A stretch of DNA of 32,000 nt from Candidatus Saccharimonas aalborgensis (GTDB taxonomy: Bacteria > Patescibacteriota > Saccharimonadia > Saccharimonadales > Saccharimonadaceae). The position numbers and the translations under genes are program-made. Shown in pieces: positions 5,606 to 31,909 of the stretch (position 1 is its first letter; each line of letters begins with the position of its first letter). The notes under the pieces were generated by a model. It ran no database searches and was not told the DNA's origin. It saw nothing but the letters and a program-made list of their open reading frames with translations. The stretch is taken from NCBI RefSeq assembly GCF_000392435.1, contig NC_021219.1:420001-452000 (forward strand), given 5' to 3'.

Positions 5606-6568
5606 ATGCCTGCATGGGTAAAGATTAGTGAACATAAACACACCGGTAAACTACGCTCCCACGAACACACCTCGTACGTGTTCTTAGGTATGTTGCTTTT
5701 TGTGGTAGGCTTTGCTCTCACTTCGTTTACGAGTTATGCCTACGTGGGACGCGGACCAGGCGCTGGTTCGGTTGGTATGAGTGGTGTCGTCGCGGGCAAA
5801 CCGCCGACATCGGCCGCACACATTACCTCGCCTACCGACGGACAGCATTTTAGTACGACACCGATCACCGTCAAGGGTACTTGTCCGACCGATAGTCTGG
5901 TAGAGATTTTCAAAAATGACATTTTCGCTGGTTCAACTCCCTGTACTACTGACGGCAGCTTTAGTCTGGAGTCAGACCTCTTGATCGGTGCAAATGTTGT
6001 GTATGCAAAGGTCTATGATGCTCTCAACCAAGCGGGGCCTGATTCAAATAAAATTACCGTCTGGTACGATGTACTCGGTATACAAGGTGGAATATTGACC
6101 TCACTCAACTTTGGCGGTAACCAGCTACTCATCAATACTGATGCAATTTTTCGAGGAACATTTCCCAATCAGGAAATGACAATGCCCATCGATATTATCG
6201 GAGGACGCGCACCATATGCAGTAAATATCCAGTGGGGAGATGGTACGAATAAGGTTGTTTCTCGCACCGACAATCAAACATTTCGGGTTGGTCACGTATA
6301 CGAAAAGGCTGGTACCTATCAGCTTTCACTTCAGGCCACCGATGCCGACGGCCGTGTCGCATTTTTGACGGTCGCTTCAATCGTAAACGGTCAGCCTCCT
6401 GTCGCCGAAACCACGACACCCTCAAAATCTGTGACAGATAACCTGTTATTATTGTGGCCGCTGTACGCCGCTACCTTTGCTGTTGTCATCAGTTTTTGGA
6501 TCGGTGAATGGCGAGAAAAAAGGATGCTCGCCAAGCACCATTTGCTGATTCTTGATCAAAACGTCTAG
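5606..6568 (+). CDS. Membrane protein with hydrophobic helices at both ends and extracellular Ig-like and PKD-like domains
   Basis: 320-aa ORF. It has a His-rich N-terminus (SEHKHTGKLRSHEHTSY) followed by a TM helix (VFLGMLLFVVGFALTSF). An Ig-like segment follows (ITSPTDGQHFSTTPITVKGTCP...). A PKD-type signature is present: IQWGDGTNKV....VGHVYEKAGTYQLSLQATDADG. A C-terminal TM helix closes the protein (LLLLWPLYAATFAVVISFWIG). Confidence 0.8.
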   Translation: MPAWVKISEHKHTGKLRSHEHTSYVFLGMLLFVVGFALTSFTSYAYVGRGPGAGSVGMSGVVAGKPPTSAAHITSPTDGQHFSTTPITVKGTCPTDSLVEIFKNDIFAGSTPCTTDGSFSLESDLLIGANVVYAKVYDALNQAGPDSNKITVWYDVLGIQGGILTSLNFGGNQLLINTDAIFRGTFPNQEMTMPIDIIGGRAPYAVNIQWGDGTNKVVSRTDNQTFRVGHVYEKAGTYQLSLQATDADGRVAFLTVASIVNGQPPVAETTTPSKSVTDNLLLLWPLYAATFAVVISFWIGEWREKRMLAKHHLLILDQNV

Positions 6569-6583
6569 CGTGATAAATGCCTC

Positions 6584-6612
6584 TTGCATTTATTAGCATA
6601 AGCGTGTATCAT
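6584..6612 (+). promoter_or_regulatory. Candidate promoter for the 6782 giant gene, giving a long leader of about 160 nt
   Basis: TTGCAT (6584-6589), a 17-nt spacer, then TATCAT (6607-6612) preceded by TG (6605-6606). It lies in the 213-nt intergenic region. Confidence 0.45.
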
Positions 6613-6781
6613 AGGGTTGTAAAACCTATGTGTGAGACAAAAACGGCTTTACAGCACTAAAACAAAATAACAGCGTTTTCTAATAAAAAACCACCCAGCA
6701 CCTTCAAGGTACCTCTTTTGCTTTGATGGCGTATTCTCACTAGGCTACAAAAACAAAAGTCCACCAGGTCAAAAAACAAAC

Positions 6782-9700
6782 ATGCCAGTAACTATCTTTC
6801 GTGCGTTAAGCCGATCACTATTGGGCGCCCTTTTTGTGGGCGTGTTTGTCGTATCTGGAATTATAGGAGTGGCACCTCAGACAGCGCATGCCGCAACCGG
6901 TATTAACCAACAAATGAACTTTCAAGGCCGACTGCTCAACGCTCAGGGTGCAGTAGTCCCTGACGGCTACTACAATATCCAGTTCAAGATCTACCAGGAT
7001 GGTACCGGTACCACCGCAGGAAACCCTGGTGGAACCCTCAAGTGGACAGAGGATTGGCTCAACACCGCTGGAAACGGTGTCCAGGTCAAAAATGGCTTTA
7101 TGTCAGTACAGCTTGGAACAATCAACCCCTTTGGTAGTCAAGTCGACTGGAACCAAGACACGCTGTGGCTGAGCGTGAATATCGGCACTACCAACACTAC
7201 CTGTACGCCATTTAGCTCCTGTGGTGGCGATGGAGAAATGGTACCAATGAAGCGTCTTGCATCTGTTGCCTACGCGATGAATGCCGGCTCGCTCGGCGGC
7301 CTAACAGCGAGCGGATTTATCCAAAATACCACAGTACCTCAATCGGCTAATATCGCTGTGCAAAGCGCAAGTGCAAGCAGTGTAGGTGCAATGGTACAAG
7401 GTGCATCATCTCAATCCGTAGACCTCTTTCGGCTCCAAGATAGTAACGGTAACGTCAATGCCGCCTTCAATAACAACGGTGATCAGCTCACGCTCGGCAG
7501 AATTAGTACTACCGGCACCGTCACGCAAGGAAAACTAGTATTTAATGATGGGACGCTTGATGGCTATGGGCTCACAATTCAGTCTGGCACGCAGACGGGC
7601 AACTATACCCTGACCCTCCCGAGTCTGGCTGGTAATGCAACGGTATGTACGAGTAATTCAACTGCCACCTCTGCCTGTACAAACTTTATCCAAAACCAGA
7701 CGACGCTACAGGCCGCCTCAAACTTTCACATCTCTGGCACTGGTCAGGCCGATACCGCTATCATCACACCAGCTATTCGACCAACAAGTGACTCCACCAC
7801 AGCCCTTAAAGTACAAAATGCTGCTGGTACCACAGACATCATGACAATAGACTCGACAAATAACCGTGTCGGTATAGCCTTAGCAAATGGCGAAACCGCA
7901 TCATATGACCTCAGTTTCGGCGGTGGAACTGATCGGATCATCGGAGTCAATACAAACACAAGTACAGGGGTAGGACGCTCCCTAACGTTACAAGGTGGTG
8001 GTGGTAACGGCACTAATCAAGCCGGTGGTGCGGTTAACATTATCGGTGGTGCACCAACAGGTTCAGGGGTGCGAGGTGCGGTTAACCTCCAAACAACCGT
8101 CAATGGTGATGTCAATATAGGAAATGCCGGGAGCGCTGCTAACACCGTCACACTGACTGCCGGTGCAACCAATGGTATTAAGCTTGTTTCGGACAAGATA
8201 ATGGTTGGTAATGCCACCACCACAACCACTATCCAAAAAACTACACAAACCACTGCCGGCCAAGCTGGGCAGCAGCTCACCATCCAGGGTGCTACCAGCG
8301 GTACAACTGGAGTGGGTGGTGCAGTGCTCATCCAGGGTGGTAATAGCGCAACTGGTACGACTGGCGGCAACCTCACTCTGGCCGGTGGAACCGGTACCAC
8401 ATCAAACGGTCTTGTTATACTCAATACGTCAGCCTTCCAGACGATCGCCAATGATGCCAACTGTTTCCCAAGTGGCACTGAATCAACCTCATCATCTGGG
8501 TGTACTGTCGCTCAGACATCCGTCAACAACTATGCTTCTGTCATCGTCGGGTTTACCCAAGATGGACAAACAGCAACCCTCCCAGATCCAAGTATTGCAA
8601 CTGCTGGACGCGTCGTTTACGTGACTGCATCAAATCTCACAAAGGACTTTACACTGAGTGTCAATGGTGGTGGCCAAGGCAATCAGATTGCAATGCGTAA
8701 GAATACAACCGCAACGATGATCTGGAATGGCGCTGATTGGACGGCTGCGGGTGCATCGAGCTCGACTACCCTCCAGGCTGCCTACGACAACACACTCCAG
8801 AGCGCCGGTGGCGCCGAACTCGTCGTCAGTAAAACCAGTGCGACCAATGGTCTGACCATTCGTGATAGCTCTACCAACCCTGTGAATGGTACGCTCCTCA
8901 GCGTCCAGACAAAAAGCGCGGCAGGCTTGCTCCAGGTCAACAGCAATGTCACTGAATATGCCAGCAATGCCGGTGCAGAGACTGCCGGTGCCAGTGCCAC
9001 AACCTTCCCGGCCAGCACTTGGAGTAGCACCGGTACTGCCACGGTCACCCGCCAAAATGTCGCCGGTAACTATATCGCCACTGGTCAAGGTTCTGTATCG
9101 ATTGCCGCAACCGCCGCTAACAGTGGTGCCAAAAACCAACTCATCAATAGCGGTGGTAGTGCCGCCGCCTTGACAGCCAACACTACCTACAACGTCAGCT
9201 TCACTACTCGTCTCACCAGCGGTTCAAGTACGTTTACTGACCTCAATGTGCAATATTCGGCTGATGGCAATACCACCCTCCTCACTGCTTGTGGTGCCAC
9301 CTCAGCTGTCAACACAAGTATCTGGACCAAGGTCAACTGTACCTTCACGACGCCCGCTAGTGGTATCACCAGCGGCAACGCGATCCTCATTCGCCAAACT
9401 GCCAGTGCCACCCGCACCTTCTACGTCGACAACCTCAGTGTCACGATTGCTGCCGATTACAACTTTGCCACCGACGGCAGTGTGACTGATGCTGGCAACT
9501 ACGCGACAAACTGGCCGACTGCCGGACAAGGTACAGTTGCGAGCTCACGTATTATCACTGACGGTAACGACGCCAGCGACAGCGCCCAAGCCAACGTGAC
9601 GGCCGGTGCAGCCAACGCCGGTATCCGTAATAAACTATCGTCAAATCCGCTCAGTTCAACGCTTTACCGCGTCACCGTCTATGGCAAGCTCATCTCTGGT

Positions 9701-10681
9701 GCTGCGTTTAACGACTTCAAGATACGCTATAGTTATCTTGGCAGCACCTCAACCACCGCTGGCGACTACGTGGACTGTGTCGACTATAACGCGCAGACGC
9801 TGGTTACGACCGGCTGGACGAAAGTAACGTGTTACATCCAAACTGATGCCAATGCCGCGACCAACCCTTACGTCTACTTCGTCGAAGCGACTTCGGGCGT
9901 ACGAACCTTCGCCGTTGACTCGTTTAGCATGACACTGGCGAGCATCACCACACCAAATGTTCAGGTCGGTGGCGGTATTAACGGTGGCCCAACCACACTC
10001 TTCACACTCGACAAAGGGGCAAGCGCACCAATCGCCAGCAACAACGATGCGCTGCTCGGCAGCATGTACTACGACACCACGCTTGGAAAGCTGCAGTGCT
10101 ACGAGGCTGATGGTTGGGGTGCCTGTGGTTCCAGCCCAGACAACATTGTCACTATCTCTCCAGAGTACACAAATGCGGTGCTCCACGGAACTGGTATCGG
10201 GACAATGACCAGCGACATCTGTTCAAGCACCCTCCAAATCAACGACGGGGTCAGTGGACGGCCCAGCGTCTGTGGGACAAATGAAACGTACAACTTCTAC
10301 AAATGGACTAGTCCTCAGGCCACAACTCAAACCTATAGTATCTATGTGACCTACCAGTTACCGAGTACCTTCAAGAGCTTCAACTCAGGTCAAGCCTCAC
10401 TCATGGCTCGTACCGATAACGGAAGCAGTGGCGGCTCATCAAGCGTTCAGTACCAAATATATCGAAATAACGGCAGCGGTCTTTTACCCTGTGGTTCAGC
10501 AGTCAGCGTTTCAAGTGGCACACAAACTTCATGGCTGACCGGTACGGCAACCGGTGCCGCCGACCCATCGACCTGTGGCTTTGCGCCTGGCAACAGTATC
10601 GTCTTCAAGATCGACATGACAACCAGTAAAAACGCGAACGCCTACGTTGGTAACCTCAACTTTGCCTTTAGCAACAAGTAG
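6782..10681 (+). CDS. Giant secreted surface protein/adhesin (1299 aa) with two tandem CBM-like jelly-roll modules
   Basis: The signal peptide is ..GVFVVSGIIGVAPQTAHA/AT. The N-terminal module reads INQQMNFQGRLLNAQGAVVPDGYYNIQFKIYQ...LKWTEDW...VQVKNGFMSVQLG. A Gly/Thr/Asn-rich beta-helix-like middle follows (GGAVNIIGGAP.., GGAVLIQGGNS..). Two repeats end in SIWTKVNCTF...TRTFYVDNLSVT and TGWTKVTCYI...VRTFAVDSFSMT, a pattern typical of carbohydrate-binding modules. All antisense and off-frame ORFs inside this gene look spurious. Confidence 0.9.
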   Translation: MPVTIFRALSRSLLGALFVGVFVVSGIIGVAPQTAHAATGINQQMNFQGRLLNAQGAVVPDGYYNIQFKIYQDGTGTTAGNPGGTLKWTEDWLNTAGNGVQVKNGFMSVQLGTINPFGSQVDWNQDTLWLSVNIGTTNTTCTPFSSCGGDGEMVPMKRLASVAYAMNAGSLGGLTASGFIQNTTVPQSANIAVQSASASSVGAMVQGASSQSVDLFRLQDSNGNVNAAFNNNGDQLTLGRISTTGTVTQGKLVFNDGTLDGYGLTIQSGTQTGNYTLTLPSLAGNATVCTSNSTATSACTNFIQNQTTLQAASNFHISGTGQADTAIITPAIRPTSDSTTALKVQNAAGTTDIMTIDSTNNRVGIALANGETASYDLSFGGGTDRIIGVNTNTSTGVGRSLTLQGGGGNGTNQAGGAVNIIGGAPTGSGVRGAVNLQTTVNGDVNIGNAGSAANTVTLTAGATNGIKLVSDKIMVGNATTTTTIQKTTQTTAGQAGQQLTIQGATSGTTGVGGAVLIQGGNSATGTTGGNLTLAGGTGTTSNGLVILNTSAFQTIANDANCFPSGTESTSSSGCTVAQTSVNNYASVIVGFTQDGQTATLPDPSIATAGRVVYVTASNLTKDFTLSVNGGGQGNQIAMRKNTTATMIWNGADWTAAGASSSTTLQAAYDNTLQSAGGAELVVSKTSATNGLTIRDSSTNPVNGTLLSVQTKSAAGLLQVNSNVTEYASNAGAETAGASATTFPASTWSSTGTATVTRQNVAGNYIATGQGSVSIAATAANSGAKNQLINSGGSAAALTANTTYNVSFTTRLTSGSSTFTDLNVQYSADGNTTLLTACGATSAVNTSIWTKVNCTFTTPASGITSGNAILIRQTASATRTFYVDNLSVTIAADYNFATDGSVTDAGNYATNWPTAGQGTVASSRIITDGNDASDSAQANVTAGAANAGIRNKLSSNPLSSTLYRVTVYGKLISGAAFNDFKIRYSYLGSTSTTAGDYVDCVDYNAQTLVTTGWTKVTCYIQTDANAATNPYVYFVEATSGVRTFAVDSFSMTLASITTPNVQVGGGINGGPTTLFTLDKGASAPIASNNDALLGSMYYDTTLGKLQCYEADGWGACGSSPDNIVTISPEYTNAVLHGTGIGTMTSDICSSTLQINDGVSGRPSVCGTNETYNFYKWTSPQATTQTYSIYVTYQLPSTFKSFNSGQASLMARTDNGSSGGSSSVQYQIYRNNGSGLLPCGSAVSVSSGTQTSWLTGTATGAADPSTCGFAPGNSIVFKIDMTTSKNANAYVGNLNFAFSNK

Positions 10682-10698
10682 CTACCTCTTCACGGTTA

Positions 10699-10707
10699 TG
10701 GTACAAT
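10699..10707 (+). promoter_or_regulatory. Extended -10 box between the two giant genes
   Basis: TGg-TACAAT (10699-10707), 18 nt downstream of the 6782-10681 stop codon. It is 18 nt upstream of GTG 10726 and 33 nt upstream of ATG 10741. Confidence 0.35.
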
Positions 10708-10725
10708 AACAGAGAAGCCACCCCG

Positions 10726-13700
10726 GTGGATAGTGAGGGTATGAAGAGAAAAAATCAATCAAGTCAGCGTAAACACGACATCGGCCGACTACGGCACGGG
10801 CGTATTGAGAGTTGTTTGTCATTGGTAAAGCGTTTCACAAAAGTAACGGCAAGCGGGAAACGCTATATTGTCATACCTGCGCCCACCAAGAAGGGCTTGC
10901 TGCGGTTTGGTCTTATTATCGTCATTGTTACCGCCATCACTGCTATTGGTTATCAGTTGTATCGTTATTATGGACCGCATAACTACCAACTCAGTTCAGC
11001 TGGAAAGTTGCTTACGCCCCCTAGCGATGTGCTTGCAAAAAGCCTCTTATTCGATGCGAAGCAACAGATCTATAGTTTCATAAACGGGAGAGCAAGCACA
11101 CCAGAATCAAAACAAAGTGGTGCGGGCCTTGTCGCCGCGACTATACCTGTCGATGCCGCGAAGGGTATGGTGGTCACCGACCCCAACTACAAAGTTGACC
11201 TCACTATTACTCCCCAATTTGCGGTCGCAAATGGCCAACAAGATCAAAACCGCGTCGTATACCCATTTCGCGACCACAGCGGCTGGCTAGTATATACCGC
11301 TGAGGGGACAGGCATCAAAGAAGACATCGTGCTCTCAAAGGCACCCGGCAACGAGGCGTCATTTACTTATTTGCTGAAACTACCTGACGGCACTGAAGCA
11401 CGGCAAGAGTCAGATGGTAGTATTGGTGTCTATGGTAACGAGCTCTTCATCAACAACATCTCTGCAGGTTCCGATGCAGACGCCGCTCTCCTCAAGAAAG
11501 CCCGCGAAAATGCCAAAAAATCCCTATTACTTTTTGTCATACCAAGCCCAATTGTCAAAGAGTACGGCAAGCAAACTTCGCAGGTTGAGGCGTCGTTTCA
11601 CCTCGAGAAAAATCGTCTCACCGTCACCGCCAAGGAACTCACCAAAGCTACCTACCCGCTGACCATCGACCCAAGCATCTACGTGGTCACCGCCCAGCAG
11701 TTCATGAATGGTAACAACGAGACCAACATCAATTTCGACGTCGCTAACAAACTTATTAAGAAGGGCCGTACCACTGGCGCGCGATTTGACACGTGGAACA
11801 GCGCGACCAAATTACCTCAGGGAAACTGGGCTGGCGGTACGGCAGTTGCTGGTGGCTACCTCTACTCGGTCGGTGGCCTTTCACTCAACGGCCAGATCTA
11901 CACCGCGCAGGGTGCAAGTACATTTACTGTCCCGGCTGGCATTACAAGCCTCTCTGTCAAGGTATGGGGGGGTGGTGGAGGTGGTGGTGCCGGCGGTTCA
12001 GCCGCCGCCGGAGGCACCGGTGGAGGAGGTGGCTATGTATCGGGAAGTGTAGCGGTCACACCGGGCGAAACTCTCACTGTATATGTCGGTGGTGGAGGCG
12101 CAACTGGTACTCGCAACACTGCTGGTGGTGGAGGTGGAGGTGGTGGCTACTCCAGTATTTACCGAGGCGCAACCCCACTGGCAATCGCTGCTGGTGGTGG
12201 AGGTGGAGGTGGTGGCCGTAACTCAGCTGGTAATACAGGTGGCGCTGGTGGCGCTGGTGGCGGCACGAATGGTATCGCTGGCACAACATCTGGTGCTGGT
12301 GGAGGTGGTGGCGGTGGTACTCAGTCTGCTGGTGGCGCCGGTGGTACTGGCGGTACGAACGCAGGTTCAGCTGGTAGCTCACTCACTGGTGGTCTTGGTG
12401 GTGACGGACGCACCAGTGGTACAACCGACGGAAGTGGCGCAAGTGGTGGTCTTGCAAGTGGCGGTAACGGTGGCGGCGTCATAGCTACCAGTCGTGCCGG
12501 TGGTGGTGGTGGTGGCGCTGGGTACTTTGGTGGTGGTGGTGGATCGAGCTCATCAAGCGGCTCTGGTGCTGGGGGTGGTGGTAGCGGCTCAAGTTTTGTT
12601 TCAGGTAGCCTCACAACCACAGCTGGTGGCGGCCAAAATCCTGGTAATAACACCGATACTGACCGCTCCGGTGCGGGCCAAGGAGGTAACGCGGGTGCAA
12701 CGGGCGGCACGGGCACTGGCGGTAGCAATGGTATCATCATCATCAACTACGGAGCAGGCGGCACAACCACAAGCACCACGCTCAACTGGATTCACCTTTC
12801 AACTACCGACGGTTCACTCGAAAGCCCAAACCCCGGCAACGGAGCCTGTAGCGGCTGGTGCACCGACAGTGCCTACAATCTCCCTGAAGCACGGAGCAAC
12901 TACTCGCTAGTCGCCTACAATGGCTTCCTGTACGTCATCGGCGGACTCAACGGCAGCGGTGTTCCTCAAACAACAATCTATGTCGCAAAGCTCGGTGCCA
13001 ATGGTGAGCCCCAGCTTTGGAACCCAACATGGAACCCGACAACTGACCCAACCAAGACAACCTGGAGCTACTGGTATACCAACAACGTGAGCTTATCAAG
13101 TGCCCGCTCCGACATCACTGCCGCCGCGTACAATAACCGTTTGTATGTCATGGGCGGCAGAGCTGCCAGCAATACTATCGTTAGTACCGTCGAAGTCGCT
13201 GACCTCACGCCAACTGGGCAAATCGGCAGCTGGAGTGCTCAGACGTCACTTCCCTATAACGCATATGGTCATGGCGCGACCGTATACAACGACCGTCTCT
13301 ACATCATCGGTGGTAGCAGTACCGTCGGAGGCGGGCCCCGCACCGATGTGTATTACAACAAGATTAACACAAACGGTACCATAAATAGTTGGCAGCAGAC
13401 ATCGAGTTTCGCGACTGGACGCTTTTCTGGTGGCGGCAACTTCGTAACAGTCTGGGGAGCATTTATGTATATATCGGGTGGTTGTAGTGCAGTCAATGCC
13501 AGTGGATACTGTTCAACTGTGCAAAGTAATACACAGGTCGCAAGTATCAACACCGATGGAAGTCTCGACGTATGGAATACAGTTGGCACGGTGTCGAATC
13601 AGCGGTTTGGTCATGGGCTTTTCGCATGGCGTGACAATATCTACGAGGTTGGTGGCTGTTCTGCCCAAAATACCAGTACGGGTGCATGTACCGTTACCCT

Positions 13701-16383
13701 GGAGACGATCGTCTATGGATCGATCAATCGTGACGGCGATGCCTCAACCGTTGGGCAATCATCCAACCCCGGTAGCGGCACCTGCACCGGTGGTACGCCA
13801 ACAAACTGTAGTACACCAGCAGCCTCAATCGGTAGCCTACTCAATGCCTCGATTGTGTCAAACGGCTATCTCTACATATTTGGCGGCTGTACCGACACAG
13901 CATGCAACCCGAGTGGTGTCACCAATGGCGTTGCCTATGCCGCCATTAGTTCAACTGGGCAAATGTCAAAACCAGCTACCTGTCCAAATGGTGCCTTCCA
14001 AAACAATATATGGTGTATCCAATCGACCAATACCCTGCCCGTCTCCGTGGCTGCAGCGAGTCCGGTCATATTCAACAACCGCATATACCTGATTGGCGGG
14101 CTCAGCGGCAACAACAACACGAACACTATCATGCGTGCCAACCTTGGTACTGACGGAAGCGTTGGGGCATGGACACAGCAGTCGATGAGTGGTGCTGGCG
14201 CAACCTCAGTTTCCTATCAATATGCCTATACTCGTGCCAATCCAGCCGACGCAACCAACAACCCCGGGCACCTGTTTATATTTGGCGGCTGCACCAACAG
14301 CAACAACGCTGGCTGCACTGCCTACTCGCAAAATGTTTATCGCTGCAACATACAGGCGGCCGGGGCAATTGCAAGTTGCAGTACCACGAACCAGCTACAA
14401 ATCGGCACCATCCCCGGCGACACGCAAACCGGCCTCGCCATCATGAGTGGTACCGTCTACGCCAATTACGTATACCTCATTGGAGGTGTTTCACCGAACA
14501 TTCAGGACCTCAAAAGTGTTCGCTATGCCAAAATCGACAATAATAACAATGTTGTCACAGCTGGAGCGAGCGGCTGGACACAGTCCCCCAACGAAATGGC
14601 CGTTGGACGACGACGTTCGGCAGCTTTCGGGTACAACGGCTACATCTATGTGATCGGTGGTTACGAAGCAGCAACCGGAACACTTCCTGACATTGAGTTT
14701 ATTAAGATGAATGTTAGTGACGGCAGTCTGGGCGACGGCGGTACCGAGACCTTCAATGTCTCGGCCGTGCAGATTAACCAGCGCTGGGGACTAAGCGCGC
14801 CGGTATCAAATTCCTATGCGTACGTTATCGGTGGCTGTACAAACGGTGCCAGTCCGGGCGGCTGTACCAGCACGACAAATGTCGTCCAAACATTCCAAGT
14901 CTACAACAATGACAGCGGCGCGCCGGCTGGCTATAGCACCAGCGCCAACCAGTATACTGCTCAGGCAAACCGCATCGGCGCCTCAGCCGCCATTCACAAT
15001 GGCTATCTCTATGTCGCCGGAGGCTGTACTAGCGCAACCGACTGTACCGCGACTACAACCGACGTCTCGTACGCACCAATCGACGCCAATGGTGCTGTTG
15101 GCACATGGACCAGCACTGCTAGTCTACCCGCGGCACGGACTTGGGGCAAGTTGCGGGCTGCGGGCGGTACGCTCTACTACATCGGCGGACAGTCAAATAC
15201 CGCCACCGACCGTCGCACCGAGGTCTATTATGCAACACCAAGCGGCGGCGCAATTTCGTCGTGGAATACCGCGTCCAATGCGCTACCAGCCGGTCGAACA
15301 AAGTTTGGCGCAACTGTCTGGAACAACCGCCTCTATGTTGTTGGCGGCGAAGGTACTGGTACTGGCTGTACGGCGAGTAACGTGTGCAACACCGTCTATG
15401 TCAGCCCCCAGCTAAATAGCGGCGGCAACATAGGCACCGCGTGGTCAACTGGCAGCACCTCGTTCACCGTGGCACGAAGCGGTGCCACAGCCATTGCGTA
15501 CGCAAACAACCTCTATCTTTTCGGTGGTTATGACGGGGCGAACTATCTGAGTGATAGTCAATATTCGCAGATCAATGCAAGCACGGGCAATGCAGGCTCA
15601 TGGAATTTCTCTAGCAGTATGCCAGGACCGCTCGCTGATGGAGACGGCTTCGCCGCCAACGGCTACATCTATGTGCTCGGTGGTAGGAGTAGTGCGACGA
15701 CGTGCGACCCCGCGACAATCGTTGCTCCCATCAGTGCTAACACGACCATCGCGAGTGGCAACAACCCGACTGGTATAGGCGAGTGGTATGAAACAAATCA
15801 GCGATATACTGGAGCGCGCTACGGTGCGGCTGCCGTGTATACTGACGGAAAAGCCTACGTTCTCGGTGGTGGCTGTGGCAGCACGCTCACCTACGCAAGC
15901 CCCGTCACACAACAGACACCCCTCCTATCACAGCCGCAGGTTGCCAAATATTCCATCATGATTGACACCGACTCCGATGTCTTCCCAAATGCGTGGCTAC
16001 TAAACGGTCTCGACAACTCCATCGGCGCTCGCTGGCAACTCAAATACCGCAGCATGGCCAATCAACAAGCCGCCAGCCTATGCGCAACCATGAGTACATG
16101 GGGCCAAGACACCAACTTCGGCGACGTCACACTTGGAACACCCGGTGCGTATATTGTGAAAGATGGTAGCGGCACCGACATCAAATGTGGACGCTACTTC
16201 TTCTTCAATGTAACGGTCGATAGCTCACAATCCTTTGGCTATCCCGACGACGTGAGTCGCGGTCCAACGATCACCGACTTGACCCTCCAATTTACCGCCG
16301 ATCCCGGCAAACGATTGATGCACGGCCGCACCTTTACTGGCGGCCTCCAGATGCCCGATGACACGCCATATTATACCAATTAG
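10726..16383 (+). CDS. Giant membrane-anchored surface protein (about 1885 aa): N-terminal TM helix, glycine-rich domain, multi-propeller Kelch-repeat region, C-terminal beta domain
   Basis: The ORF opens at GTG 10726. ATG 10741 (MKRKNQ..) is an alternative start. A TM helix is present (LLRFGLIIVIVTAITAIGYQL). The glycine-rich domain reads FTVPAGITSLSVKVWGGGGGGGAGG...TLTVYVGGGG... Seventeen hydrophobic-Y-hydrophobic-x-GG Kelch-type motifs follow it: FLYVIGG, RLYVMGG, RLYIIGG, FMYISGG, NIYEVGG, YLYIFGG, RIYLIGG, HLFIFGG, YVYLIGG, YIYVIGG, YAYVIGG, YLYVAGG, TLYYIGG, RLYVVGG, NLYLFGG, YIYVLGG, KAYVLGG. One more (YLYSVGG) lies before the Gly-rich domain. Confidence 0.9.
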   Translation: MDSEGMKRKNQSSQRKHDIGRLRHGRIESCLSLVKRFTKVTASGKRYIVIPAPTKKGLLRFGLIIVIVTAITAIGYQLYRYYGPHNYQLSSAGKLLTPPSDVLAKSLLFDAKQQIYSFINGRASTPESKQSGAGLVAATIPVDAAKGMVVTDPNYKVDLTITPQFAVANGQQDQNRVVYPFRDHSGWLVYTAEGTGIKEDIVLSKAPGNEASFTYLLKLPDGTEARQESDGSIGVYGNELFINNISAGSDADAALLKKARENAKKSLLLFVIPSPIVKEYGKQTSQVEASFHLEKNRLTVTAKELTKATYPLTIDPSIYVVTAQQFMNGNNETNINFDVANKLIKKGRTTGARFDTWNSATKLPQGNWAGGTAVAGGYLYSVGGLSLNGQIYTAQGASTFTVPAGITSLSVKVWGGGGGGGAGGSAAAGGTGGGGGYVSGSVAVTPGETLTVYVGGGGATGTRNTAGGGGGGGGYSSIYRGATPLAIAAGGGGGGGGRNSAGNTGGAGGAGGGTNGIAGTTSGAGGGGGGGTQSAGGAGGTGGTNAGSAGSSLTGGLGGDGRTSGTTDGSGASGGLASGGNGGGVIATSRAGGGGGGAGYFGGGGGSSSSSGSGAGGGGSGSSFVSGSLTTTAGGGQNPGNNTDTDRSGAGQGGNAGATGGTGTGGSNGIIIINYGAGGTTTSTTLNWIHLSTTDGSLESPNPGNGACSGWCTDSAYNLPEARSNYSLVAYNGFLYVIGGLNGSGVPQTTIYVAKLGANGEPQLWNPTWNPTTDPTKTTWSYWYTNNVSLSSARSDITAAAYNNRLYVMGGRAASNTIVSTVEVADLTPTGQIGSWSAQTSLPYNAYGHGATVYNDRLYIIGGSSTVGGGPRTDVYYNKINTNGTINSWQQTSSFATGRFSGGGNFVTVWGAFMYISGGCSAVNASGYCSTVQSNTQVASINTDGSLDVWNTVGTVSNQRFGHGLFAWRDNIYEVGGCSAQNTSTGACTVTLETIVYGSINRDGDASTVGQSSNPGSGTCTGGTPTNCSTPAASIGSLLNASIVSNGYLYIFGGCTDTACNPSGVTNGVAYAAISSTGQMSKPATCPNGAFQNNIWCIQSTNTLPVSVAAASPVIFNNRIYLIGGLSGNNNTNTIMRANLGTDGSVGAWTQQSMSGAGATSVSYQYAYTRANPADATNNPGHLFIFGGCTNSNNAGCTAYSQNVYRCNIQAAGAIASCSTTNQLQIGTIPGDTQTGLAIMSGTVYANYVYLIGGVSPNIQDLKSVRYAKIDNNNNVVTAGASGWTQSPNEMAVGRRRSAAFGYNGYIYVIGGYEAATGTLPDIEFIKMNVSDGSLGDGGTETFNVSAVQINQRWGLSAPVSNSYAYVIGGCTNGASPGGCTSTTNVVQTFQVYNNDSGAPAGYSTSANQYTAQANRIGASAAIHNGYLYVAGGCTSATDCTATTTDVSYAPIDANGAVGTWTSTASLPAARTWGKLRAAGGTLYYIGGQSNTATDRRTEVYYATPSGGAISSWNTASNALPAGRTKFGATVWNNRLYVVGGEGTGTGCTASNVCNTVYVSPQLNSGGNIGTAWSTGSTSFTVARSGATAIAYANNLYLFGGYDGANYLSDSQYSQINASTGNAGSWNFSSSMPGPLADGDGFAANGYIYVLGGRSSATTCDPATIVAPISANTTIASGNNPTGIGEWYETNQRYTGARYGAAAVYTDGKAYVLGGGCGSTLTYASPVTQQTPLLSQPQVAKYSIMIDTDSDVFPNAWLLNGLDNSIGARWQLKYRSMANQQAASLCATMSTWGQDTNFGDVTLGTPGAYIVKDGSGTDIKCGRYFFFNVTVDSSQSFGYPDDVSRGPTITDLTLQFTADPGKRLMHGRTFTGGLQMPDDTPYYTN
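11964..12730 (+). repeat. Low-complexity GGN-codon tract encoding the glycine-rich domain
   Basis: Runs of ggtggtgg / ggaggtgg / ggcggtgg span about 770 nt. They generate long spurious ORFs in other frames and on the opposite strand (Pro-rich, His/Gln-rich, Val-rich). Confidence 0.9.
12119..12216 (+). repeat. Perfect 29-nt direct repeat, two copies offset by 69 nt (in frame)
   Basis: ctgctggtggtggaggtggaggtggtggc occurs at 12119-12147 and again at 12188-12216. The flanking bases differ on both sides. Confidence 0.9.
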
Positions 16384-27752: not shown

Positions 27753-28115
27753 TTATAAATACGCCCGGTATCTGCCTGGGTCCTCGCGGGATTTCTCATT
27801 TTTGGCGTAGAGCTCAACAAAGGTTACCATTGCACTGGTCTTAACCAGTACGAATACAGCTCTTGCCTTATCTGACATGCCTAGTGACAGTACGTCCAAT
27901 CGCATCTTGACGACTTCAACAGACTCATTAACCACCAGTTTTGTGGCTCGTTTGTTGTTGAAAAACTTTTGCTGGAAGATTTCCTGCTGATCAGAGTCAG
28001 TGTATACATCGGCTATGAGCAGCATTGCTGCATCTACGTCATCGGGAAGCGAACGCCACTTCTTACTTAGTCGCTTGAGGTCTTTTTTGAACTCAGGAGA
28101 CAGCTCAAAGTTCAT
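27753..28115 (-). CDS. Putative toxin of a type II TA pair, RelE/ParE (HigB/Gp49)-like
   Basis: 120-aa ORF overlapping the upstream antitoxin gene by 11 nt. The N-terminus FELSPEFKKDLKRLSKKW and the late block VVKMRLD....KARAVFVLVK.....FVELYAKNEKSRE resemble RelE-superfamily toxins (F.kdlkkL ... yR.iy.v ... i..K.e). The assignment rests on motif resemblance and genomic context only. Confidence 0.5.
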   Translation of the reverse strand: MNFELSPEFKKDLKRLSKKWRSLPDDVDAAMLLIADVYTDSDQQEIFQQKFFNNKRATKLVVNESVEVVKMRLDVLSLGMSDKARAVFVLVKTSAMVTFVELYAKNEKSREDPGRYRAYL

Positions 28116-28887
28116 CCTCTGGCTCCGTCACGGCGGTCAAGTCGCTGCGATAAAAGACGAAGCGATAGTTTATTTTTTCACCCTGTTTTGCAACTCGCCA
28201 CGGCGTATCATAGTGTGAGAGCTCACTCAATTCTGCAGCGGACTTATCACTTAAGCGTGCTAATGTCTCATTTATGTGCTGTAGTTCGCTAGCGCTAAGT
28301 TCTTTCAGTTCCACGCTTATTAATGGTAAGTACTTCTTTTGCGTGTTCTTGAAGTATTCCGTCTCTGCAACTTCGAGCTCTTGGTTCGCCTTCATGCCTT
28401 CTACTACACTCACAAAATCCCGCGTCGGGGTTGGACCAAAGTGGTTACGCACGTAGGTTAGGCCTGTTACCGACTGACCTGTCTTTTCGTAGTAGTCAAA
28501 ATCAATAAAGTACAGCAACTTATATAAAACGGTTTCGCCAACATTCGGTTTAGCACCTACTTTTTCGAGTACATATAGCAGCACTTCGCGGAGCTTTTCC
28601 GGGCTCGTTTTTGGATCGATGTCACGCGGGATAATCTCTTCCTTGGCTTGCCCGAAATCGTACGGTGCGACAGACTCATGCACCATACTCACTTCGCCTG
28701 ATATAAGATCGGCCGGTGAGACCTGGTAATATTCAGCAAGTCTGTTAATTTCATCAAGGTTCGCCGGACGACGTTCTGCCTCCAGGCTTGCATAGGTAGC
28801 ACGAGCAATACCAATTGCCTCTGCGACATCGGCTTGGCTCACGCCTTTTTCTCCTCTTAATCTCTTGAGAGTATCTGTAAAGCTCAT
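28105..28887 (-). CDS. XRE-family HTH fused to a DUF4065 (Panacea/SocA-like) domain: PanA-type antitoxin
   Basis: ATG 28887 has a GGTGGG box 8 nt upstream. The track TTG at 28902 adds 5 residues. The HTH reads FTDTLKRLRGEKGVSQADVAEAIGIARATYASLEAERRPANLDEINRLAEYYQVSPADL. The DUF4065-type core reads VLYKLLYFIDFDYYEKTGQSVTGLTYVRNHFGPTP. Confidence 0.8.
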   Translation of the reverse strand: MSFTDTLKRLRGEKGVSQADVAEAIGIARATYASLEAERRPANLDEINRLAEYYQVSPADLISGEVSMVHESVAPYDFGQAKEEIIPRDIDPKTSPEKLREVLLYVLEKVGAKPNVGETVLYKLLYFIDFDYYEKTGQSVTGLTYVRNHFGPTPTRDFVSVVEGMKANQELEVAETEYFKNTQKKYLPLISVELKELSASELQHINETLARLSDKSAAELSELSHYDTPWRVAKQGEKINYRFVFYRSDLTAVTEPEDEL

Positions 28888-28978
28888 AATCTTGCCCACC
28901 AATTATGGTTTGTGATTCTATAAGAGTAACACAACTCTACATTATTAGTCAATATATCTTCTCCCAAAATGAGCACTA

Positions 28979-28987
28979 TGTTATAAT
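28979..28987 (+). promoter_or_regulatory. Extended -10 promoter in the divergent intergenic region
   Basis: TGt-TATAAT (28979-28987). The predicted transcription start is near 28994, which is 112 nt upstream of ATG 29106. Confidence 0.45.
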
Positions 28988-29105
28988 ACCTTCGGTTACT
29001 GGTTCCTGTAAAGTGGGGCGGGAGCTACAAAAAAACCATAAGGTCGGTGTGGCACGTCGCTCGCGCCACAGAATATTTTTGAGAGCGAGAAGGGGCTATG
29101 AGGAA

Positions 29106-29393
29106 ATGACAGCACAACAACTATACGATGATGTACTGAGTTACGTCGGTAGCGATAATTTTATCAACTGGTATGTCGGGATTACGGGTGATGTTGAAAA
29201 ACGCCTTTTTGGCGAGCATAACGTTCATCGAACTCAACATAAGTGGATTCATGGACAAGCTATGAGCGCTGAAACAGCTCGGGCGGTTGAGGCAGCACTG
29301 ATTGAGCTAGGTTTCGACGGTGGCGGTGGCGGCGGTGACCATACCGCCATTCACGTCTACGCGTTTCGCCAAGATCTAGGTACTGTACGCTAA
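29106..29393 (+). CDS. Small protein (95 aa) with a degenerate GIY-YIG-like motif, unknown function
   Basis: ATG 29106 is preceded by GAAGGGG (29089-29095). The motif string is NWYVGITGDVEKRLFGEHNV....ARAVEAALIELGF. It resembles the YIG-(T)-x-d-x-x-R-x-x-x-H and downstream Glu elements of GIY-YIG/UPF0213 proteins, but the first GIY strand is not evident. A Gly6 run lies near the C-terminus. The 67-codon upstream extension in the track runs through the promoter region and looks non-coding. Confidence 0.55.
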   Translation: MTAQQLYDDVLSYVGSDNFINWYVGITGDVEKRLFGEHNVHRTQHKWIHGQAMSAETARAVEAALIELGFDGGGGGGDHTAIHVYAFRQDLGTVR

Positions 29394-29491: not shown

Positions 29492-29516
29492 GAGGCAAGT
29501 AGCCTCGTTTTGTTTT
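29492..29516. terminator. Short bidirectional intrinsic terminator between convergent genes
   Basis: GAGGC (29492-29496), loop AAGTA, then GCCTC (29502-29506), followed by gTTTTGTTTT on the plus strand. On the minus strand the same hairpin is followed by ATTTTG. The stem is only 5-6 bp. Confidence 0.4.
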
Positions 29517-29517
29517 G

Positions 29518-30708
29518 CTAGCGATTTCCCTTTGCGCGGTTGTGCGCTACACAAAGCATCTCACAATTTTCCAGCGACGTTGAGCCACCCTTGCTCCATG
29601 CGCTTACGTGATCAGCATCCATTTCGTTATACCCCCAGAGTTTCGCTTGATTTGCGTCGTGTCCGATCGCACAGTACGAGCAGTTGCTAGTATCTTTCTC
29701 GTGTGCCGTATTTGTTTGACGCTCATAGACTACCCGTTTGTCGCGATCGTCAAACACCCTCACGTCAAGTAATTTTGTATCTGACTCTCCACCGAGAATA
29801 TACTCAAAAACGCCGCTGCGACGTTTGACAAACTCATCTCCATAGAGTCGTCGCACTGTCTCATGCACCCGGGCCGGCTCATACTGCGTTGTATGATACA
29901 TCTCGTACAACCTACCCCATTCAAGTCCGCGCATCTCTCGCTCGACATCAATAAAGACACCGTCGATCCAGTTGATAACCTTCGTGAAGTACGCTTTTAA
30001 TTCATCAATGCTTGTGTCATAACGATGCTGGCTCATGTAGCGATCCACATCTTCGCGACTCACCCACTGCAAAGCCCGTTCGAGATATTCTTGGCGACGT
30101 ATATCGCCTGCGATGTACGAACTCCACTTTTGGACATTGCTATTGTTTGGGTTGCTGAACTCTTCGCGCGCCAGTGTTACAAATGGTCCGCTATACACGG
30201 CATTCAAAATCTCTTGCTCATTGAGCGCCACGCCTGCGATGTTGATGGTCTTGAACCAGTCTTTTATTTCCGATTCCTCACCCTCGCAGATATACACAAG
30301 CAGTGGCGTTTCCATGATACGACGCTGCATGTCTGCCGCTAGACCGCTAAAATATTGTTGATTTCCGTTGGTATCTTTTGCGGCAAAGAGTCCGCGTACA
30401 AACCTTCCTATCGTCGTGATACGCTGCTGGCCATCAAGTACTTCATAGTCGTCATCACCGACTTTGCTAAAGTACAATAGGCCGATCGGATAGCCCTTGA
30501 GTAGACTATCGATCACCGCGACGTCCTTCCTGCCGTCACCATAGATGTATCGGCGTTGATACTCCGGCTGGATCGTCAGTCGGCCGTCGAGTCCAAAGAG
30601 TCCTTTTTCGTCAAGCTCATTGTACTCAAAACCTTCGACGATATCAGCAACAGTGATGCCTTGCCCAGCATCGGCTTCATCTCGCCTTACCCATAGTGTT
30701 GTTTTCAT
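29518..30708 (-). CDS. DUF262 (ParB-like/GmrSD N-terminal) domain protein with a C-terminal HNH endonuclease domain
   Basis: DUF262 motifs are [12 protein letters not shown] and [14 protein letters not shown] (the DGQQR box). The C-terminal HNH reads CSYCAIGHD....[35 protein letters not shown]. The ATG overlaps the TGA of the upstream methyltransferase gene (ATGA, 30705-30708). Confidence 0.85.
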
Positions 30709-31889
30709 ACAGCCGCCTTTCTGTGTCGGATTAAGATGCGTTGATAGGGAACGATAGCTTTGCCATCGGTGTCGACGTAGACGGGGTTAATCCAGCCCTG
30801 TCGTATCGCTCCTTTGTTACCTTGCTTATAGTAAAGATCGACAAATTCTTTTGTTACACCCCTCCAACCTTTTGGCAGGATATTTGACTGAGGATGACCC
30901 ACGATCTCAAATTGCTCCGGCGAGTATTTGTCGAGGAAACTGATGGGTACTCCCATAACGCCATTGTAATCACTGGGAATTGCATCGCTAAACGGCACTT
31001 CAATGGCATCGTAATTGTCGTATTTATCATAAGCATCTCTACCCTGCATTTTTTTGTTGTGTTTCAAATTTTCGGCCATCGTCATGAGTTGCAATGGTTG
31101 GTGACGACGTGCGTGGTCAATGTTTGTGAACCAATTTACATTGCGAAACTTCACGAGTCCCGTCTGTTCATCAAACACTCCTGAGGCAAAATCACGAACA
31201 TTTTCAGAAGGTACCGAAAAATATGCGTTTCCCGCATTAAAACCGTTGCCGAGCCAAATCTTATCTTCCTTGATTAGGGGAAATATTTCTTTATACGTAA
31301 TAGCGTTCATGCTACCAATAATCACAAATTTCTTTTTGTATTCGACGAGCTGCCCTACGTACTCGCGAAACAAACTAAACGGCGGATTTGTCACCACGAT
31401 ATCCGACTGCTCGAGTAGCTCTACACACTCAACACTGCGAAAATCACCGTCGCCCTCGAGCGGGGTCCACTCGTTATGCTTATTTGCTTTGAGTTGCTGA
31501 GCCACGTCCTCGAGATTGAATTGCCCATCGTCATCATAGTCACCCACATCGCTAATGACAAACTTGTTTGCCGTTACCTTTGGCCTGCCTTTTGCTGGAG
31601 TGACGGTGACATCATCGCCAAACAGTCCGAGTTGTGTATTTGCAACGGGGCTTGGCTTGTAGCTCGTCGTGATTAGCTTTTTCAATCCCAGTCGCTTGAA
31701 GTTGAGCACAAAGTATTTGAAAAAGTTGCTCTCAAATGGGTCATCGCAGTTACAATAGACTACTTTGTCACGAAACGTATCGGGATTATACATAAGATAC
31801 GCCCCGATTTCCTTTTGGATGTCGGGATACTGCGTATAAAACTCATCATTTTTGGCCTTTTTGGCGCTAGTGAGGTTTGAGTTCGCCAT
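30705..31889 (-). CDS. N6-adenine DNA methyltransferase, EcoRI-methylase-like family
   Basis: The N-terminus [20 protein letters not shown]....[37 protein letters not shown] closely resembles the M.EcoRI-type N-terminus as I recall it. The catalytic NPPF motif is present in [14 protein letters not shown]. Confidence 0.85.
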
Positions 31890-31900
31890 AAACTGTAATT

Positions 31901-31909
31901 ATTATAGCA
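31901..31909 (-). promoter_or_regulatory. Extended -10 promoter just upstream of the methyltransferase ATG
   Basis: The minus strand reads TGc-TATAAT (plus 31909-31901), then 11 nt (aattacagttt), then ATG 31889. The predicted 5' UTR is only about 4 nt and has no Shine-Dalgarno sequence. Confidence 0.45.

Follow-up and report, generated by a model that had tools for sequence, protein, structure and literature searches.

Based on our comparisons, we propose that two minus-strand genes in a 32,000-nucleotide stretch of DNA from Candidatus Saccharimonas aalborgensis (contig NC_021219.1, positions 420,001 to 452,000; the whole stretch is called the window hereafter) form a two-gene restriction-modification operon of the Type II kind, in which methylation would protect the host DNA from the partner nuclease. 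We put the probability of this reading at about 0.75. It is drawn from features that can be observed directly, namely the gene anatomy, the domains, the conservation of residues, the linkage of the two genes across genomes and the database class of both. In the list of open reading frames (ORFs) of the window, the pair stands at 30705..31889 (394 aa) and 29518..30708 (396 aa). The first gene encodes an EcoRI-family N6-adenine DNA methyltransferase, as identified by the Pfam family PF13651, the PADLOC MTase_II model and alignment with M.EcoRI. The second encodes a predicted restriction nuclease, in which Pfam, the PADLOC REase_II model and an AlphaFold2 model together delineate a ParB/DUF262 domain, a helical middle region and an HNH domain. 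The two genes look like a compact bicistronic operon. The locus lies in a complete Saccharibacteria genome of ~1.0 Mb (CP065015.1) and is shared by a sister genome (CP065017.1), whose nuclease is 98% identical.

The linkage between methylase and nuclease is, judging from the loci compared here, strict and ancient. When one genome per GTDB species was scanned, relatives of the nuclease were detected in at least 531 species genomes. The best 80 of these, at 62-72% identity, come from lineages of the candidate phyla radiation (CPR), Chloroflexota, Bacteroidota, Bacillota, Pseudomonadota, Planctomycetota, Elusimicrobiota, Omnitrophota and Actinomycetota, and from one Pacearchaeota metagenome-assembled genome (MAG). 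The preliminary description of this DNA had proposed checking whether this methylase family and DUF262-HNH proteins occur together; by tblastn, each of the 79 loci that extend far enough has an EcoRI-family methylase gene upstream in the same orientation, a count that leaves out 5 loci starting at a contig edge. The same pair, with the methylase gene first, is present on annotated plasmids of Moraxella, Enterococcus, Pseudarthrobacter and Pediococcus (counted here as four phyla). An EcoRI-family methylase gene also precedes divergent nuclease genes whose products are 31-39% identical to ours (loci L087-L090, from Lactiplantibacillus, Variovorax and two metagenomic contigs), which means that the linkage is kept down to 31% nuclease identity. 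Flavobacterium phage vB_FspS_laban6-1 (L091, positions 10219-12581 of its record) carries a complete pair in the same order with a 4-nt overlap, its nuclease being 65% identical to that of the window; this pair adjoins a tape-measure gene on the opposite strand. In addition, a 688-aa metagenomic protein (P0155) is a putative single-chain fusion of EcoRI_methylase, GmrSD_N and HNH domains. The linkage pattern is the one predicted for a cognate restriction-modification pair, and it is very hard to fit to a modification-dependent nuclease with an unrelated methylase at its side. Both the conserved gene order and the E values of the Pfam matches given below lie far outside chance expectation.

The nuclease itself is widely spread. 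More than 8000 matches were found in a set of 5.8 billion proteins, the top ones being 66-98% identical and coming from Saccharibacteria, other CPR lineages, Bacteroidota and Flavobacterium. A library clustered at 50% identity contains 5598 matching clusters at E≤1e-3 and 417 at E≤1e-30, with full-length relatives down to 33% identity. In about 11 of the 79 loci, unrelated genes lie between the methylase and nuclease genes; loci with such inserts are L007, L017, L018, L029, L044, L052, L054, L055, L060, L070, L071 and L089. The inserts comprise RhuM-like and Bro-N-like genes, an OLD-like ATPase pair, a Dam-like methylase gene and a NUMOD4/HNH_3 homing endonuclease gene. We considered the inserted genes as a possible third component of the system and rejected this idea, as they vary from locus to locus and occur in that minority of loci. 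Gene insertions between methylase and nuclease are familiar in other restriction-modification operons.

The nuclease has three parts. Its DUF262/ParB-Srx-like nucleotide-binding domain (aa 45-172; 30193..30576, minus strand) matches PF03235 GmrSD_N with an E value of 2.5e-20 and bears the motifs QPEYQR (aa 47-52) and DGQQR (aa 92-96, nt 30435-30421). The helical middle region (aa ~173-342; 29683..30192, minus strand), delineated by the AlphaFold2 model and the PADLOC NsnA profile, is a candidate DNA-recognition module. The HNH domain of the beta-beta-alpha-metal type (aa 343-396; 29521..29682, minus strand) matches PF01844 with an E value of 4.9e-7. Within the last 54 residues we found the motif CxxC...DH...N...CxxHN, from which a zinc site (C343, C346, C382 and C386) and the catalytic residues D366-H367, N381 and H389-N390 can be assigned. 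In Pfam, no match to PF07510 (DUF1524, GmrSD_C) was obtained at E≤0.01. The preliminary description had claimed a DUF262 domain with DGQQR joined to a classical HNH domain in place of DUF1524, and both the Pfam result and the motifs agree with it. QPEYQR, DGQQR, the four cysteines, D366-H367, N381 and H389-N390 are all invariant in 54 homologues; therefore, the putative nucleoside triphosphate (NTP) pocket and the zinc-HNH active site are under strong selection.

The AlphaFold2 model of the nuclease (predicted local distance difference test score 81, predicted template modelling score 0.66) shows an alpha/beta N-terminal domain, a middle part made up entirely of helices (~aa 164-338) and, at the C-terminus, a small beta-beta-alpha module. 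With Foldseek, its matches in the PDB were weak, none being below an E value of 0.02, but of the kinds to be expected: BrxU (E 0.02), ParB CTPases and sulfiredoxin for the DUF262 domain, and the Gme HNH structure 4h9d and the HNH domain of Cas9 for the HNH domain. In a sequence search of the PDB, the sole match of the nuclease was again BrxU (7p9k, E 0.049), aligned at QRE.. and DGQQR. These sequence and fold searches of the PDB found no close relative of the nuclease with a solved structure, the PDB sequence search found no relative of the methylase, and NCBIfam holds no meaningful family for either protein. From PADLOC, the NsnA profile matches aa 41-249 of the nuclease (E 3.2e-32), and PD-T4-2_A matches it with an E value of 8.2e-16. 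The N-terminal half of our nuclease (aa 41-249) is thus matched by both of these, and the first part of its helical middle region aligns with the ParBDB of NsnA. In NsnA of the Menshen system, the matching region consists of a ParB-DUF262 domain and a DNA-binding "ParBDB" domain (PMC12065111). The likeness to Menshen ends there: the locus has neither the NsnB ABC-ATPase nor the NsnC effector, the HNH effector is fused in cis, and the partner is a methylase. We consider the ParB/DUF262 domain and the helical region to be the sole candidates for DNA recognition and regulation.

The methylase matches PF13651 EcoRI_methylase with an E value of 6.4e-128 over practically the whole profile (positions 1-344 of 345), in agreement with the initial claim that the adenine methyltransferase with DEFYTQ...NPPF belongs to the EcoRI family. 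In the order of its motifs, DEFYTQ (aa 15-20) is followed by NPPF (aa 168-171, nt 31388-31377) and the C-terminal region. NPPF corresponds to the motif (D/N)PP(Y/F) of S-adenosylmethionine-dependent amino-methyltransferases and aligns with the NPPF of M.EcoRI. Compared with authentic M.EcoRI, from E. coli plasmid pU90-3, which also encodes R.EcoRI, the methylase is 45% identical over aa 2-330. A special C-terminal extension of the methylase was considered and rejected: the PF13651 match reaches aa 389, and the C-terminal motif YQRILI has its aligned counterpart in YFRILI of M.EcoRI. Internal insertions account for the extra length. Other methylases linked to DUF262-HNH nucleases reach 59% identity to M.EcoRI, which in a neighbour-joining tree groups with the linked methylase of locus L087, inside the radiation of DUF262-HNH-linked methylases. 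The EcoRI system thus shares with our operon the PF13651 methylase family and the two-gene make-up. It differs in its nuclease, R.EcoRI being a PD-(D/E)XK enzyme unrelated to the ParB/DUF262 and HNH nuclease of the window, and in its gene order, with the nuclease gene before the methylase gene in EcoRI and after it here. Among the loci that we examined, authentic R.EcoRI occurs in L085 only.

A recognition site with an AATT core (GAATTC, RAATTY or similar) is probably the best guess, because the methylase is 45% identical to M.EcoRI, because M.EcoRI is nested among the linked methylases and because Cj0208 of Campylobacter makes RAm6ATTY. For the enzymes ApoI and AcsI, which recognise RAATTY, the presumed source is Arthrobacter, which is also represented among the plasmid matches; we take this as an unconfirmed lead. 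Cj0208, which belongs to the same methylase family as ours, was reported to confer RAm6ATTY methylation (PMC4335053, PMC4687069), and the specificities of the family cluster around the AATT core. Cj0208 differs from the methylase of the window in being effectively an orphan, with a short nuclease remnant upstream.

The database class of both genes points in the same direction. The nuclease matches the PADLOC model PDLC03418, "Type II restriction enzyme" (REase_II), over nearly its full length (aa 18-395 against profile positions 8-371 of 372, E 1.4e-95), and the methylase matches PDLC03297, "Type II methyltransferase" (MTase_II), with an E value of 6.4e-102. As judged from the alignment, the PDLC03418 profile has the same architecture as our nuclease from end to end. 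The PADLOC models of the Ssp and GmrSD types, in contrast to this full-length match, give weak matches to the N-terminal part of the nuclease. Since PDLC03418 and PDLC03297 match, the pairing is already catalogued as Type II, and with relatives in hundreds of species from many phyla, the terms "atypical" and "new two-gene defence logic" used in the preliminary description no longer fit. That description had left a choice between methylation-protected restriction and a new logic; the former is favoured by the 79 of 79 linkage, by the divergent relatives and by P0155, and the latter found no support. On this evidence the locus is best regarded as an ordinary member of a widespread, already catalogued restriction-modification family. 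The open literature that we searched contained no description of an EcoRI-family methylase with a DUF262-HNH enzyme as its partner. Pipelines of the Joint Genome Institute (JGI) label several homologues of the nuclease "McrA."

The enzyme can be compared with two groups of known nucleases. Like GmrSD, BrxU and SspE, it has an N-terminal DUF262 domain with QRE.. and DGQQR and a C-terminal His-Me-finger nuclease. The nuclease domain of those enzymes, however, is DUF1524, whereas ours is a PF01844 HNH domain with a four-cysteine zinc site; they are roughly 550-590 aa long against 396 aa; and GmrSD and BrxU work by themselves on DNA that is modified, whereas the family studied here is linked to an upstream methylase. 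With the HNH Type II enzymes KpnI, Hpy99I and PacI, it shares the beta-beta-alpha-metal module, the structural zinc and the PADLOC REase_II class. To our knowledge, no enzyme of the KpnI, Hpy99I or PacI type has a ParB/DUF262 nucleotide-binding domain, and none of them was matched by our nuclease in the PDB sequence search. In Type II enzymes of the HNH type, a partner methylase protects the host (PMC4081073, PMC2699513).

We suggest the following mechanism for the operon. The EcoRI-family methylase would mark host DNA at a short site, probably with an AATT core, and the cognate nuclease would use its zinc-stabilised HNH active site to cut DNA that lacks the mark. An NTP is probably bound and hydrolysed by the ParB/DUF262 domain and, by analogy with BrxU, SspE and ParB, this domain and the helical domain probably serve as a DNA-binding or switch module that licenses cleavage by the HNH domain. 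The blocking of cleavage by methylation, the identity of the site and the dependence on NTP are the parts of this scheme that go beyond what is directly observed, the first having indirect support from the obligate linkage and the putative fusion P0155. In BrxU and SspE, NTPs are bound and hydrolysed by the DUF262 fold, which also governs dimerisation or the activation of the nuclease (PMC10952713, PMC12707154). We infer an NTP-gated step in our enzyme because the motifs are conserved and the characterised relatives of the fold hydrolyse NTPs. The methylase gene precedes the nuclease gene and the two are coupled through an ATGA overlap; therefore, the methylase would be translated ahead of the nuclease.

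Several considerations weigh against this reading. One is that a convincing avoidance signal for palindromes or hexamers was seen neither in the window, nor in 38.7 kb of the source genome, nor in 1.19 Mb of homologous loci, where all NAATTN hexamers were examined and third-order Markov simulations were used for the source genome. GAATTC is absent from the window and occurs twice in the 38.7 kb, against about 3 occurrences expected; its pooled observed-to-expected ratio of 0.845 is the lowest among the NAATTN hexamers, yet it stays within the general depletion of palindromes. RAATTY is marginally low in the 38.7 kb (19 against 27.7 expected, with an uncorrected P of about 0.04), and AAATTC/GAATTT are enriched in the pooled homologous loci, with a ratio of 1.09.

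Another is the stronger conservation of the nuclease compared with the methylase, which is unusual among Type II systems; restriction endonucleases usually diverge faster than their methylases. In 95% of 2278 pairs of loci (L005-L084 and the window), the identity between the nucleases was above that between their own methylases (median 72% against 56%), a comparison in which the nuclease identity is inflated by the choice of the loci as best nuclease matches. In divergent clades the relation is reversed, with 36% for the nuclease and 45% for the methylase in L087, and 39% and 45% in L088. Furthermore, a Cohnella MAG (L067, positions 6555-11170) has an intact nuclease gene with a methylase gene that is cut down to aa 202-365 and lies behind the gene for an 889-aa P-loop ATPase. 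Of about 70 loci that could be assessed, this is apparently the only one in which the nuclease gene is intact and the methylase gene is not, and it would be unexpected if the nuclease is active there without another protecting methylase. The assignment to Type II, moreover, rests on a database label. Finally, the ParB-type NTP pocket is fully conserved, suggesting that the strict definition of Type II may not fit. A strict Type II enzyme works with Mg2+ alone and needs no NTP.

There is also a tentative alternative, to which we give appreciable weight without preferring it: the family could be a distinct class of NTP-gated restriction enzymes, filed as "Type II" by default. In such a class, a ParB-like clamp or dimerisation switch of the CTP/GTP type, together with the ParBDB-like domain, would read unmethylated AATT-core sites and license the HNH domain fused in cis. 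If so, constraint from several functions would account for the higher conservation of the nuclease than of the methylase across bacterial phyla, a DPANN archaeal MAG and a phage, and most members of the "EcoRI methylase" family would work with a DUF262-HNH nuclease rather than with an EcoRI-like enzyme.

An unlikely possibility is that the nuclease senses the mark of its own host as SspE does, its DUF262 domain recognising host N6-methyladenine and thereby controlling both NTPase activity and how unmarked DNA of invaders is nicked or cleaved, so that the methylase would also act as an activator or licensing factor. The DUF262 domain with DGQQR in SspE is a modification sensor and NTPase; NTP hydrolysis and nicking set in when phosphorothioate is recognised, and the enzyme is dependent on host modification (PMC10952713, PMC12707154). 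The NTP-pocket motifs are invariant in the homologues of our nuclease, and its obligate linkage to a methylase fits this idea equally well as it fits the classical model. The enzyme differs from SspE, however, in its effector and size (a PF01844 HNH domain, 396 aa, without DUF1524), its full-length PADLOC match is to a Type II restriction enzyme and not to Ssp or GmrSD, and the extra layer of regulation is not required by the sequence.

The wide and patchy spread of the pair over phyla at 62-72% nuclease identity could also be read as that of a selfish addiction or mobility module, which would persist by post-segregational killing and have little role against invaders. Its presence on small plasmids and in a phage fits this, as do the adjoining Panacea-type toxin-antitoxin pair and the T5orf172 gene just outside the window. 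Type II systems are known to act in both defence and addiction, and such a role would leave a restriction-modification mechanism in place. Several loci, on the other hand, have defence genes as neighbours, with GmrSD just downstream in L089 and an OLD-like ATPase in L060, and we regard a mainly selfish role as doubtful, slightly more so than SspE-like sensing. Very improbable, and the least likely of these ideas, is that a modification-dependent Type IV nuclease of the GmrSD kind, acting on foreign marks, for example modified cytosines, stands beside an adenine methylase that is independent or an orphan: modification dependence is common to all the well-studied nucleases with DUF262, namely GmrSD and BrxU (PMC4619093, PMC12707154), the JGI labels "McrA" would suit it and L067 retains a mere fragment of the methylase, but this idea runs against the fixed order and often overlapping codons of the pair in 79 of 79 loci and down to 31% nuclease identity, against the putative fusion P0155 and against the lack of DUF1524, and independent modules would not be co-transferred as a unit over so many phyla.

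Returning to the proposed restriction-modification operon, its layout agrees with the early description in two further respects. The stop and start codons of the two genes overlap in ATGA (30705..30708, minus strand), with the TGA of the methylase gene at 30707-30705 and the ATG of the nuclease gene at 30708-30706, as both the ORF coordinates and the sequence attest; this overlap is predicted to couple the translation of methylase and nuclease. In the annotations of the homologous loci L001-L004, L087, L088 and L091, the two genes repeatedly overlap by 4 or 11 nt or lie 9 nt apart. The promoter-like box at 31901..31909 (minus strand) is present as an extended -10 element, TGcTATAAT, read from the sequence and ending 11 nt 5' of the methylase ATG. 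It was not called by the two-hexamer consensus scan because there is no fitting -35 element. No Shine-Dalgarno sequence was seen before the methylase ATG (31887-31909, minus strand), and since TATAAT lies only 11 nt from this ATG, the operon mRNA may have a very short leader or be leaderless. Promoter-like matches within the two genes (5) are not above those in shuffled sequence (3.2 ± 1.9). Directly past the nuclease stop codon, a consensus match indicates a terminator-like hairpin, GAGGC-loop-GCCTC with a T-rich tail (29492..29506, minus strand), which is likely to mark the end of the operon.

The surroundings of the operon contain further genes of mobile or defence character. On its downstream side, a minus-strand gene at 28105-28902 encodes an antitoxin with HTH_3 and SocA_Panacea (E 2.5e-18) domains, and a 120-aa ORF that overlaps it (27753-28115, minus strand) encodes the presumed toxin, for which Pfam and PHROGs gave no family match. 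Together (27753-28902), they are likely to be a Panacea-type toxin-antitoxin pair; in CP065017.1, its second gene was called as a non-overlapping 90-aa ORF. Between the nuclease and antitoxin genes, and convergent with the former, lies a plus-strand ORF of 162 aa (28905-29393) with a GGGGGG run and no family match, for which other gene callers give only a 95-aa version. Directly upstream of the methylase gene, beyond the window, are T5orf172/MUG113 and DUF2188 genes. We regard the operon, the Panacea pair and the T5orf172/MUG113 and DUF2188 genes as a putative small islet of mobile and defence genes. A heliorhodopsin gene (PF18761; L094, positions 1366-2136, from CP065015.1) lies a few genes upstream of the operon, about 5 kb past the end of the window. 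Elsewhere in the window, two giant plus-strand ORFs span 6782-16383; one, of 1299 aa, has no Pfam match, and the other, of 1885 aa, has Kelch repeats and a glycine-rich domain.

Standard defence-annotation tools would label this locus as restriction-modification of Type II, and as a catalogue entry it has little value. The value that remains is mechanistic: a very widespread and very conserved predicted restriction nuclease is built on the ParB/DUF262 nucleotide-binding fold, which is otherwise known from modification-dependent or modification-sensing enzymes. If the ParB domain is an NTP switch, the family would link the CTPase/NTPase switches of the ParB type to classical, host-protective restriction, and would supply a compact (~390 aa) methylation-sensitive enzyme. 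As far as the samples covered here show, the textbook enzyme M.EcoRI belongs to a methylase family that is more often partnered with a DUF262-HNH nuclease. For Saccharibacteria, the predicted system would be a practical barrier both to the DNA uptake on which these bacteria depend and to their genetic manipulation.

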